Under the pieces are notes generated by a model that was not told the DNA's origin, ran no database searches, and saw only the letters and a list, made by a program, of their open reading frames with translations. 61,443 nucleotides of DNA from a virus. Positions 5,365-7,184 of this stretch are shown piece by piece; within the stretch, counting starts at the first letter, position 1, and the number at the start of each line of letters is the position of its first letter. Position numbers and translations under genes: made by a program. The stretch is taken from the IMG/VR virus record IMGVR_UViG_3300036901_000131; one strand, given 5' to 3'.

Positions 5365-5855
5365 TGAAACTACGATTTTTGGAAACCTCGGACATGCCAG
5401 CGTTTCGGGACTTGCGCCTCGAAGGTCTGAAGAACCACCCCACGTCATATATGCACATTTATGATGAAGAAAAACAGAGACCCGATGCGTACCATGAAGG
5501 GTTGCTGACCCAGAATCGCGTGATCGGCGCATTCGATGACGATATCCTGGTGGGTTTCGCCTTCATGTCTCCGTTTGGAGCGATCAAGCAACGTCATAAA
5601 TGTCACCTTTGGGGAGCCTATGTGAAGCCCGAATTTCGTGATCATGGGATTGGCAAGGACATGCGACTGGCGCTGTTCGAACACGCCAAGAGCATTGGTA
5701 TGACACACTGCCTGTCATCAATCGTTGATGGAAATCCGGCATCCCTCGCCATGCATGAAGGCGTGGGTTATGAACGAATGTACACCGAGAAATTTGGTCT
5801 GAGACACCGCGACGGCAGTTTCTCAGACATCATTCATCTCATCAAGATGCTCTAA
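5361..5855 (+). CDS. GNAT family N-acetyltransferase
   Basis: Start overlaps the upstream stop (ATGA). GFAFMSPFG...HLWGAYVKPEFRDHGIGKDMRL matches the GNAT acetyl-CoA-binding motif (R-x-x-G-x-G/A). Confidence 0.65.
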   Translation: MMKLRFLETSDMPAFRDLRLEGLKNHPTSYMHIYDEEKQRPDAYHEGLLTQNRVIGAFDDDILVGFAFMSPFGAIKQRHKCHLWGAYVKPEFRDHGIGKDMRLALFEHAKSIGMTHCLSSIVDGNPASLAMHEGVGYERMYTEKFGLRHRDGSFSDIIHLIKML

Positions 5856-6058
5856 ACAGGTTGTCCGAGGCACGAAATGACCAATCGCGTGGCATCCCTT
5901 ATCGCGCCTGGGTCGGGCGTGTTGGCGGCGACGAAATCCACGTATTGCTCCGGTGGAATCTGACCGGCCAGCATACGCATGAATTCGGCGGCGAATGACG
6001 CATCGGGAAATATAAGCTGCTGGCCGCAGGCCGCGACAGCGATAAGAGTATCCATCAT
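5852..6058 (-). CDS. hypothetical small protein
   Basis: 68-aa ORF whose ATG overlaps the sulfotransferase stop (ATGA). It is the last gene of the minus-strand fiber operon. Confidence 0.3.
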   Translation of the reverse strand: MMDTLIAVAACGQQLIFPDASFAAEFMRMLAGQIPPEQYVDFVAANTPDPGAIRDATRLVISCLGQPV

Positions 6059-6873
6059 CAGACGATCTTGACGCCTCTGGTGTTGACCAGATCAGGGTCC
6101 GCCCAGAACGAGTCATTCTCCATGCGACGAAACAGATCGGGCGGCAGCAAGGTCTGGCGTTTGTTCGCCTTCACCTTCCGACCCACCGTGTGCAATCCTG
6201 GAGTGCCCAGTCTGGCATCGAATTCATCAGCGTTGTATTCGACATTCTCGAAATCGTGATCGAAGGGTGGCTCGCCGATGAAATCGTAGATCGCCTTGAT
6301 CGCGCGATTTGGATTGGTCGTCAGCGTTTCATAGGTCAACAGCATCAATCTGTCCGCCTGCTCGCCATAGAAGGCTTCCTTCAATGCCTGATAGGGAAAG
6401 CCAACCATGCCATGACTGGTGCCGAGGGCATCAAATCTCGTGTAGACGGTGCCGCCGACCTCGAAGCCAAAAATCTTCGATGGTTCGAATTTATTGGTGC
6501 GGATGATGCGCTCAATGCTGTCGATTATCCATGGTACGTGACGCACGCAGGCGATCACTTTTGCACGCGGAAACAAATCGGTCAACAATGGCAACTTGGC
6601 GCACCACATGCGATTGGTGTCGAACACGATTTTGTTCTGCTCATCGTGATAATATGATGAGAAACAAGAGCGAAGGATCGCCGCTCGTTTCACATCGTCG
6701 ATGAACACCGCCGCTTCGTTGTCCTGACTCATCTGGCGGAGCATGGAGATCACCAGCGAACCGACCGGACTGGTCATGCCAGCATGAAACCGAGGATTCT
6801 GTTTCAGGATGGCGGACAACAGGGTGGAGCCCGATCTCGGCAGACCGGAGATAAAATGGATGCCGTTCTTCAT
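6058..6873 (-). CDS. PAPS-dependent sulfotransferase family protein
   Basis: N-terminal ISGLPRSGSTLLSAIL is the 5'-phosphosulfate-binding P-loop-like motif of sulfotransferases (Sulfotransfer_3/Stf0-like). Start overlaps the upstream ORF stop. Confidence 0.65.
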   Translation of the reverse strand: MKNGIHFISGLPRSGSTLLSAILKQNPRFHAGMTSPVGSLVISMLRQMSQDNEAAVFIDDVKRAAILRSCFSSYYHDEQNKIVFDTNRMWCAKLPLLTDLFPRAKVIACVRHVPWIIDSIERIIRTNKFEPSKIFGFEVGGTVYTRFDALGTSHGMVGFPYQALKEAFYGEQADRLMLLTYETLTTNPNRAIKAIYDFIGEPPFDHDFENVEYNADEFDARLGTPGLHTVGRKVKANKRQTLLPPDLFRRMENDSFWADPDLVNTRGVKIV

Positions 6874-7184
6874 CAGGCGACCAGTACCGCGCCAGCGAAG
6901 GGTGACGGCTTCGCGGGATTATTGACGATGGCCAACAGTGCTGTGTAGATTTCGGTCAACGCGATTGAGCCGGTTTCCGCTGATGGGATGGAGGTGAACG
7001 GAATGTTGAAGAAGTATGGACGGCGCGCGGATGCCTGCGAGCCCGCCGCGTAGGTCTCGGATGTGAGCCAACCAGACAGGGTGATGGAGACATTTTCGTT
7101 GACCATGTCGGCATGAATGCTGGTAACCACCCAGTAAGTGGTGACCACGCCTGATTTGTCGGTGATGGATTGTTGTAATGGCAT
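6873..7184 (-). CDS. hypothetical protein immediately downstream of tail fiber (possible fiber assembly or accessory protein)
   Basis: 103-aa ORF lying 13 nt after the 960-aa fiber gene in the same operon. No motif recognised. Confidence 0.4.
   Translation of the reverse strand: MPLQQSITDKSGVVTTYWVVTSIHADMVNENVSITLSGWLTSETYAAGSQASARRPYFFNIPFTSIPSAETGSIALTEIYTALLAIVNNPAKPSPFAGAVLVA

Follow-up and report, generated by a model that had tools for sequence, protein, structure and literature searches.

In animals and plants, tyrosine sulfation does much to determine how extracellular proteins are recognised. Among bacteria the modification has been documented essentially for a single peptide, RaxX, and RaxST is the sole proven bacterial protein-tyrosine sulfotransferase. 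RaxST of Xanthomonas oryzae pv. oryzae (Xoo) sulfates Tyr41 of RaxX, both in vitro with 3'-phosphoadenosine 5'-phosphosulfate (PAPS) and in vivo, within the sequence HVGGGD-sY-PPPGANPK (PMC4646787). Its catalytic residues are Arg-11 and Ser-118, and homologues approximately 40% identical to it are scattered over Proteobacteria and Cyanobacteria, 'in diverse genetic contexts' (PMC6637879). Here we describe what is almost certainly a viral member of this family, the sulfotransferase gene ST (6058..6873, minus strand, 271 aa), found in a stretch of 61,443 nucleotides (the window) from IMG/VR virus record IMGVR_UViG_3300036901_000131. The window comes from a large T4-like phage with alphaproteobacterial hosts, and ST closes a block of fibre genes within it. 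The family of RaxST homologues is already known; what is new is the setting, a virus in which the gene keeps a constant place as the end of a fibre-gene module.

The ST protein, whose N-terminus reads MKNGIHFISGLPRSGSTLL, was compared with family models. It matched Pfam Sulfotransfer_3 (PF13469; E 2.5e-17, 64.3 bits against a cutoff of 27) and Sulfotransfer_1 (PF00685; E 1.7e-9, 37.9 bits against a cutoff of 22), and also phrog_27463 (E 4e-39). The 5'-phosphosulfate-binding (5'-PSB) loop GLPRSGSTLL (6817..6846, minus strand; ST residues 10–19), with P12 R13 S14 G15 S16 T17 as its core, aligns with GVPRSGTTL of the eukaryotic tyrosylprotein sulfotransferases (TPSTs) and with GLPRAGSSLL of RaxST, R13 being equivalent to RaxST Arg-11 and to TPST2 Arg78. 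Within an alignment of 36 family members P12, R13, G15, S16, T17 and L18 are invariant and S14 varies. Likewise, the 3'-phosphate-binding (3'-PB) motif RHVPWIIDS (6517..6543, minus strand; R111 to S119 of ST) aligns with RDGRASVHS of the TPSTs and RDVGWIVDS of RaxST. R111, W115, D118 and S119 are invariant in the same alignment; R111 and S119 align with R183 and S191 of TPST2, and S119 is equivalent to RaxST Ser-118.

The original prediction, made from the sequence of this stretch, had called the gene a PAPS-type sulfotransferase on the strength of its GLPRSGSTLL loop, and the match to Sulfotransfer_3 together with two intact PAPS-binding motifs bears this out. The possibility raised there of a generic P-loop kinase lacking 3'-phosphate-binding residues does not apply, because the 5'-PSB loop and the invariant 3'-PB residues R111 and S119 are both present. 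Fold comparison gave values of 20.1 for TPST1, 19.4 for TPST2 and 19.0 for the tick TPST, then 16.3 for a polyketide sulfotransferase, 13–14 for heparan-sulfate sulfotransferases and 10.4 for Stf0; nucleotide kinases, from which the sulfotransferase fold is distinct, reached at most 9.5. Both Sulfotransfer models, named beforehand as possible assignments, scored above their cutoffs, and the remaining candidates were not favoured: NodH, NoeE and Stf0 were rejected on family models and closest fold, the NCBIfam NoeE model giving 21.9 bits against a cutoff of 500. PAPS-dependent sulfuryl transfer by ST is thus predicted from family and motifs.

Alignment of ST with the Xoo RaxST sequence (taken from PMC6637879, Fig. 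S6) gave 45% identity and 65% positives over 255 aa (BLASTP, E 2e-78), RaxST having 267 aa and ST 271 aa. Identity to RaxST was 42–49% in all 40 family members compared, the window ST included. The motifs HFISGLPR(A/S)GS, RQNP..HA..TSPV, VFDTNR.WC, LFPR....C(C)VR.V.WI.DS.ER, FDA.L..PGLH.V and LPP.LF....FW are common to both proteins, HA(D/G)xTSPV and FDxxLxxPGLH being conserved, and the catalytic Arg/Ser pair occupies equivalent positions in the two (R11/S118 in RaxST, R13/S119 in ST). No signal peptide was found in ST, which opens with strand 1 and the P-loop, and it would therefore act in the cytoplasm, where fibres fold. RaxST is also cytoplasmic and lacks a signal peptide, and in both cases the gene adjoins one for an exported or displayed protein. 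The neighbours themselves differ, RaxST being accompanied by a 60-aa peptide resembling the ribosomally synthesized and post-translationally modified peptides and by a type I secretion system (T1SS), whereas ST is accompanied by a pair of fibres of 767–960 aa and a small protein, p103. A raxX-like gene and the T1SS genes raxA and raxB were sought in the window and none was found. Moreover, ST is encoded by a virus, and its substrate is one that we infer.

The human and tick TPST1/TPST2 structures (PDB 5wri, 3ap3, 8w5z) are only 18–21% identical to ST in sequence, and their C-terminal third gives no sequence-level alignment with it. TPSTs are Golgi-lumenal type II membrane proteins. ST shares the TPST fold, yet is no TPST orthologue. 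Given its relationship to RaxST and the TPSTs, we lean towards a protein tyrosine as the acceptor of ST.

The genes around ST form an unbroken run on the minus strand, in the order p195, fibre 2, fibre 1, p103, ST and orf68. The first, p195 (12387..12974), overlaps the start of fibre 2 (10091..12394, 767 aa) by 8 nt; a gap of 11 nt leads to its paralogue fibre 1 (7197..10079, 960 aa), and a gap of 12 nt, holding an AAGGA Shine–Dalgarno sequence, leads to p103 (6873..7184), a small conserved protein of 103 aa. Overlaps of 1 nt then join p103 to ST and ST to orf68. At both ST-flanking overlaps the coding strand reads TGATG, the TGA stop sharing its A with the next ATG. The coupling through ATGA overlaps that had been proposed for ST holds insofar as there is an overlap with a translational coupling effect; its form is the 1-nt TGATG, and the 4-nt form occurs only in one relative (locus L088). 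Across 4000..14500, promoter-like and terminator-like matches showed no excess over shuffled sequence (8 versus 9.4 and 10 versus 9.6, respectively), so that nothing argues for a separate transcription unit with a promoter of its own. ST has the marks of belonging to the fibre-gene unit (a shared strand, junctions that are short gaps or overlaps, and a linkage kept in relatives), and it would be co-transcribed with the fibre genes.

The conservation of this arrangement was examined in a phage-like set of nine loci on eight distinct contigs, the window included, two of the loci (L008/L009) being near-identical copies. Homologues 67–87% identical to ST are present on the eight other loci (seven distinct contigs), and wherever the upstream DNA is visible ST follows a gene for a fibre with YadA-head repeats, directly or after the 103-aa gene, and its start usually overlaps the stop of the gene before it. 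The order fibre, p103, ST was found in the window and in L001 (a 269-kb contig), L087, L088, L089 and L093; the fibre gene directly precedes ST in L002; and in L008/L009 the order is fibre A, a p103-like gene, fibre B and ST. The p103–ST overlap is kept in the relatives, at 1 nt or, in L088, at 4 nt. Fibre linkage thus persists across three gene orders, and down to 67% identity in ST and 52% in p103, while other neighbours change. The DNA downstream of ST differs in nearly every contig, making ST the last conserved gene of the block. The tight linkage of ST to both fibre genes, as originally claimed, is therefore kept in every related phage contig found.

Among the phage STs the proportion of non-synonymous differences (pN) is 0.09–0.11 and that of synonymous differences (pS) is saturated at 0.65–0.85, giving a non-synonymous to synonymous rate ratio (dN/dS) of at most 0.06. 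The phage STs group together in a single clade whose sister is formed by the STs of Acetobacteraceae, and both the GC content and the codon usage of ST match the phage. Taken together, the clade, the low pN with saturated synonymous sites and the phage-like composition indicate that ST is a long-standing, functional gene bound to the fibre module. An identity of 71% to bacterial proteins might suggest instead a decaying or neutral passenger, lately captured from a host and functionless in the phage. To this we give hardly any credence: the selection data effectively refute it, all 66 residues invariant among the 36 aligned members are kept in ST, the phage copies are monophyletic and phage-like in composition, and the overlap with p103 is conserved.

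The closest cultured relatives were Sinorhizobium phage Phosso (52% identity) and Agrobacterium phage Atu_ph07 (48%). No nucleotide similarity to known phages was detected over 5000..13000, and scans of IMG/VR returned no relatives of ST or p103. As had been supposed, sulfotransferases are unusual in phages: ST homologues were found in 10 of 50,697 phage records, all of them from cyanophages or marine viruses and at around 30% identity. The sulfotransferases of cyanophages S-SKS1, S-SCSM1 and S-SRM01 belong to the same phrog_27463 family but are only 28–31% identical to ST and fall outside the RaxST-like clade. They were considered as a precedent for fibre linkage and rejected, as in the S-SKS1 and S-SCSM1 records they do not lie beside annotated fibre genes.

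Bacterial homologues were collected from one genome per species, which gave 77 loci at 46–71% identity to ST. They came from Acetobacteraceae, Xanthobacter, Ancylobacter, Bradyrhizobium, Pseudomonas nitroreducens, Luteibacter, Methylomonas, Thalassospira, Calothrix and others, the nearest (71% identity) being from Acetobacteraceae. ST thereby falls within the set of RaxST homologues of Proteobacteria and Cyanobacteria and shares its patchy distribution (Calothrix, Pseudomonas nitroreducens, Methylomonas, Bradyrhizobium, Acetobacteraceae), whereas the phage copies are a clade of their own. Open reading frames (ORFs) were called and neighbours clustered for 75 usable loci (L003–L086; ST mostly at about 8001–8816). 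A direct neighbour of at least 700 aa was present in 51 of the 75. In 41 a gene of this size lay immediately downstream on the same strand, often 3–12 nt away or overlapping, and at several further loci the next substantial downstream ORF was the giant gene. The bacterial contexts of RaxST homologues are therefore not random.

The giant partners were of three types, namely proteins combining DUF4347, a Gly-rich β-helix and cadherin/Big domains (T1SS-type adhesins), PATR autotransporters, and PATR proteins with Hint_2. A TolC-like gene follows the giant-protein gene in the loci tested for it (L062, L067 and L032), with an HlyD gene as well in L062, and a conserved downstream cluster was seen in 14 bacterial loci. 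The order of ST, exported protein and type I secretion genes is the raxX-raxSTAB layout at larger scale. Among cultured strains that carry the pair of ST and giant adhesin are Pseudomonas nitroreducens TX1 and members of Bradyrhizobium, Ancylobacter and Methylomonas. No polysaccharide-synthesis genes were found among the conserved neighbours of the bacterial homologues. The literature searched held nothing on a sulfotransferase–adhesin pairing, on phage fibre sulfation or on DUF4347, and the family-wide pairing with giant adhesins is not described in it.

The layout has a counterpart in Aah–AIDA-I and TibC–TibA, in which a heptosyltransferase is encoded beside the adhesin that it modifies. By analogy, a gene for a cytoplasmic transferase abuts the gene for a β-helical surface adhesin in either case, although heptose from ADP-heptose takes the place of sulfate from PAPS, the fold is another one and there is no homology.

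Segments with at least 45% glycine and scattered tyrosines were present in 32 of the 57 giant neighbours, for example GGGGNFAYDGGGG and YANNGYGGAGGG; such segments are illustrated by L036:8868-16580, L013, L014 and L031, with GGGNFAYDGGGG and YANNGYGGAGGG as the sequences shown. Reminiscent of the GGGD-sY-PPPG context in RaxX, these Gly-rich tyrosine segments may represent a common acceptor context. A broader reading would be that phage virions carry sulfotyrosine and that the RaxST family comprises widespread cytoplasmic tyrosine sulfotransferases, each dedicated to an adjacent giant secreted adhesin, with Tyr-bearing Gly-rich segments resembling RaxX GGGD-sY as the likely sites. We regard this general statement as possible and rather less probable than the narrower one for the phage that is set out below.

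In L005, L006 and L007 (Acetobacteraceae), which carry the closest bacterial homologues, three tandem genes for small 'phage tail collar' (PF07484) proteins, a DUF6916 gene and a GNAT gene lie on the upstream side of ST, which is followed by a PATR and Hint_2 protein, so that fibre-like and adhesin-like surroundings occur together even in bacteria. In L017:838-4954 (Candidatus Sulfotelmatobacter) a PqqD-domain protein and a SecA-like ATPase precede ST and there is no giant protein, a layout that may represent a different export route for a sulfated substrate.

The bacterial survey also bears on whether ST might act on a small molecule (a signalling compound, an antibiotic or a nucleotide-linked sugar), as an auxiliary metabolic gene unrelated to the virion. 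Auxiliary genes are indeed abundant in the window, which would suit such a role. We consider it improbable, as biosynthetic neighbours are absent from the phage loci and from the 75 bacterial loci, the fibre linkage is conserved and the best matches in both sequence and fold are protein sulfotransferases.

Sulfation of a fibre protein is favoured because ST belongs to the RaxST family, has a TPST-like fold and has bacterial relatives paired with secreted giants rather than with polysaccharide clusters. The fibre module in particular suggests itself as the target since ST has no signal peptide, RaxST sulfates the product of the gene next door, the relatives of ST lie beside surface adhesins and ST ends the fibre block. 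In the mechanism proposed, ST, fibre 1, fibre 2 and p103 would most likely be made together. ST would take PAPS from the host and O-sulfate at least one tyrosine of fibre 1, fibre 2 or p103 in the cytoplasm, before or during fibre assembly. The virion would then display sulfotyrosine on its adsorption apparatus, and the modification would serve adsorption. That a fibre or p103 is the acceptor is the reading we favour, tentatively, and put at somewhat below an even chance.

Both fibres match Pfam YadA_head (E 1.7e-32 for fibre 1 and 1.9e-31 for fibre 2). Fibre 1 consists of a conserved N-terminus, YadA-head-type repeats of 14 residues, a Gly/Ser-rich linker and a conserved C-terminal domain of ∼150 aa, which could be aligned over 10 fibre sequences; fibre 2 has the N-terminal and C-terminal domains of fibre 1. 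The N-terminal 38 aa of fibre 2 show weak similarity to an annotated tail fiber protein (E 0.1), and the C-terminal domain had one weak relative in the IMG/VR scans. A word-indexed protein search with the C-terminal region of fibre 1 (7200..7802, minus strand) returned nothing, its own protein included, which probably reflects a limitation of the tool with long repetitive proteins; p103 of the same contig does occur in that database (P0121).

The Gly-rich linker of fibre 1 (7593..7652, minus strand) contains Tyr810 (TTGYNGGG) and Tyr829 (GTTGYDFSGG), in a context resembling RaxX GGGD-sY-PPPG and the Tyr-bearing Gly-rich segments of the ST-adjacent bacterial proteins. The YNGGG motif was found again in the fibres L001b and L089, with the variant YNLGG in L008b. 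Y810 and Y829 of fibre 1, together with the AYA tyrosines that recur in the 14-residue repeats, are speculative candidates for sulfation. The small protein p103 could be a fibre accessory protein or itself a substrate of ST; its confident structure model gave no informative fold match, and no similarity was detected between p103 and the bacterial DUF6916 neighbour.

Several observations weigh against a fibre or p103 as the acceptor. On the side of the enzyme, RaxST is the only family member with a demonstrated acceptor, and its homologues presumably act on other substrates, according to the authors who described them (PMC6637879). The residues proposed to bind RaxX, His-50 and Arg-129 of RaxST, are replaced in ST by Asn52 and Glu130, and the acceptor of ST is therefore expected not to be RaxX-like. 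The catalytic machinery likewise departs from that of the TPSTs. TPST2 reportedly employs Glu99 as the catalytic base, in addition to Lys158 and Ser285. Neither Glu99 nor Lys158 is kept in ST, where Met33/Thr34 and Thr86 align with them; the position of the catalytic glutamate is thus occupied by Met or Thr, and the glutamate is absent from RaxST too. The near-invariant His30 (at least 90% of the 36 aligned members) is a candidate for the catalytic base of ST, a guess at present. In addition, no genes for PAPS synthesis were found in the window.

On the side of the substrate, no invariant acidic-tyrosine motif turned up in either the fibres or p103, and the YNGGG tyrosine, which is missing from fibre 2 and from several homologues, is only semi-conserved. 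The fibres diverge fast, at 24–56% identity, against 76–87% for ST in the closer phage relatives and 67% in L093, and they show no homology to the ST-adjacent giant proteins at E ≤ 1e-3. That fibre 1 and fibre 2 are virion fibres is deduced from their architecture: YadA-type repeats were their only database matches, the C-terminal domain had no database match, and no virion core genes were found in the window. Finally, host-modifying morons are known to settle at the 3' end of tail-fibre operons.

These points lead to two further explanations. In the first, ST is a tyrosylprotein sulfotransferase for some other phage protein or for a secreted adhesin of the host, and its linkage to the fibres reflects merely shared late expression or common inheritance. 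The evidence from family and fold supports this equally well as it supports fibre sulfation, and the fibres yielded no conserved acceptor motif; furthermore, PATR/Hint_2 proteins and autotransporters, the partners of the closest bacterial homologues, could also be encoded by a related host. Against it, the linkage to the fibres outlasts three gene orders and divergence to 67% in ST and 52% in p103, and the partner is encoded next door both in raxX-raxST and at the bacterial loci. We consider a protein target outside the fibre module unlikely.

The second explanation is conversion of the host surface, in which ST would sulfate an envelope glycan of the host (lipopolysaccharide (LPS), capsule or an exopolysaccharide intermediate on the cytoplasmic face) or a surface protein. 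The receptor would thereby be altered, and superinfection blocked or progeny kept off debris; linkage to the fibres would follow since receptor-modifying genes travel with receptor-binding genes, like the O-antigen acetylases and glucosylases beside tailspike genes. The place of ST as last conserved gene, with variable DNA downstream, is a typical accessory or moron position, its nearest relatives are bacterial (Acetobacteraceae, as above) and the window encodes a GNAT acetyltransferase and a family 2 glycosyltransferase (GT2) elsewhere. However, the nearest matches to ST, by sequence as well as by fold, are protein-tyrosine sulfotransferases, its bacterial homologues adjoin secreted giants and T1SS genes rather than polysaccharide clusters, and its translational overlap with p103 is conserved. 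The closest cultured relatives, Phosso and Atu_ph07, are moreover large lytic-type T4-like phages, whereas seroconversion is typical of temperate ones. Host-surface conversion is thus, in our estimate, about as unlikely as a protein target outside the fibre module. Among the targets listed in the original prediction, a fibre protein is accordingly the one favoured (RaxST family, TPST-like fold, bacterial pairing), and readings of the Nod-factor or LPS type are not. The GT2 gene also mentioned there (60570..61439, minus strand, cut by the window end) is real but lies 54 kb from ST, and no link between the two was found.

The literature searched contained no account of sulfotyrosine on a natural phage virion protein. 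If ST does sulfate the fibres, this would be a new class of post-translational modification of the virion, affecting adsorption and host range, with receptor binding tuned by fibre sulfation. ST would also provide a tyrosine sulfotransferase that is compact, soluble and cytoplasmic and has a defined partner, useful for producing sulfated proteins. On the broader reading given above, protein tyrosine sulfation would be frequent among bacteria and no mere curiosity of Xanthomonas. With confirmation in bacteria, the 'raxST homologues of unknown function' would become a general adhesin-modification system.

Downstream of ST, the 68-aa orf68 (5852..6058, minus strand) overlaps the ST stop by 1 nt. 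The ORF exists, as had been noted when it was proposed as a member of the operon, but it is a doubtful gene: it has no Pfam, PHROG or NCBIfam match and no homologue in any related phage locus, and its codon score of 0.06 is intermediate between in-frame windows (0.35 ± 0.14) and out-of-frame windows (−0.39 ± 0.30). It may instead be a 3' untranslated spacer separating ST from the convergent GNAT acetyltransferase gene (5361..5855, plus strand; Pfam Acetyltransf_1, E 2.2e-11). Within this region of 200 nt no hairpin or terminator and no inverted repeats were detected, the folding z-score being 0.47. The GNAT gene is a neighbour of ST, outside its transcription unit. It was considered as an orthologue of the ST-adjacent GNAT of Acetobacteraceae and rejected, the similarity being weak (26% over 47 aa).

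The GNAT gene is overlapped by 4 nt by p318 (4408..5364, plus strand), which lies upstream of it and contains a PP-loop-like motif, SGGVDSE. A role for p318 as a PP-loop sulfate-activating enzyme was considered and rejected, no Pfam, PHROG or PDB match having been obtained. The pair of p318 and GNAT recurs near ST in L087 (65% and 69% identity), and GNAT (69%) is also near ST in L089. At the other end of the run, p195 gave no family match; a partly conserved counterpart precedes the fibre genes in L001. A T4 Rnl1-type RNA ligase (13010..14206, minus strand; RNA_lig_T4_1 and T4_Rnl1_C) is encoded on the strand of the fibre genes, two genes upstream of them, and matches phrog_562, 'RNA ligase and tail fiber protein attachment catalyst'. 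In T4, gp63 (Rnl1) promotes tail-fibre attachment as well.

Elsewhere the window encodes a homologue of adenylosuccinate synthetase (44719..45984, plus strand; Pfam Adenylsucc_synt, E 3e-47). It is PurZ-like, matching phrog_1211, '2-aminooxy adenylosuccinate synthetase' (E 1.5e-66), and because of this match the phage DNA may hold 2-aminoadenine (Z base). A protein of 921 aa (27291..30056, minus strand) carries domains of the Major Vault Protein (MVP_shoulder, E 3e-20; Vault_3, E 2.9e-7), an unusual feature for a phage. The minus strand also encodes translation initiation factor IF3 (IF3_N and IF3_C; 20856..21437), Hsp20 (19630..20103) and a ClpX-like ATPase (24004..25302), and there is a topoisomerase II gene. 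Domains of ClpS, CHAD, MucR/Ros, NrtR-WHD, YqeY and NT5C were detected at the level of the window rather than per ORF. Finally, the protein encoded at 2504..3259 (plus strand) has a signal-peptide-like N-terminus, and it is putatively the source of a match in the window to Phenol_MetA_deg, a family of outer-membrane β-barrels (E 2.1e-8).

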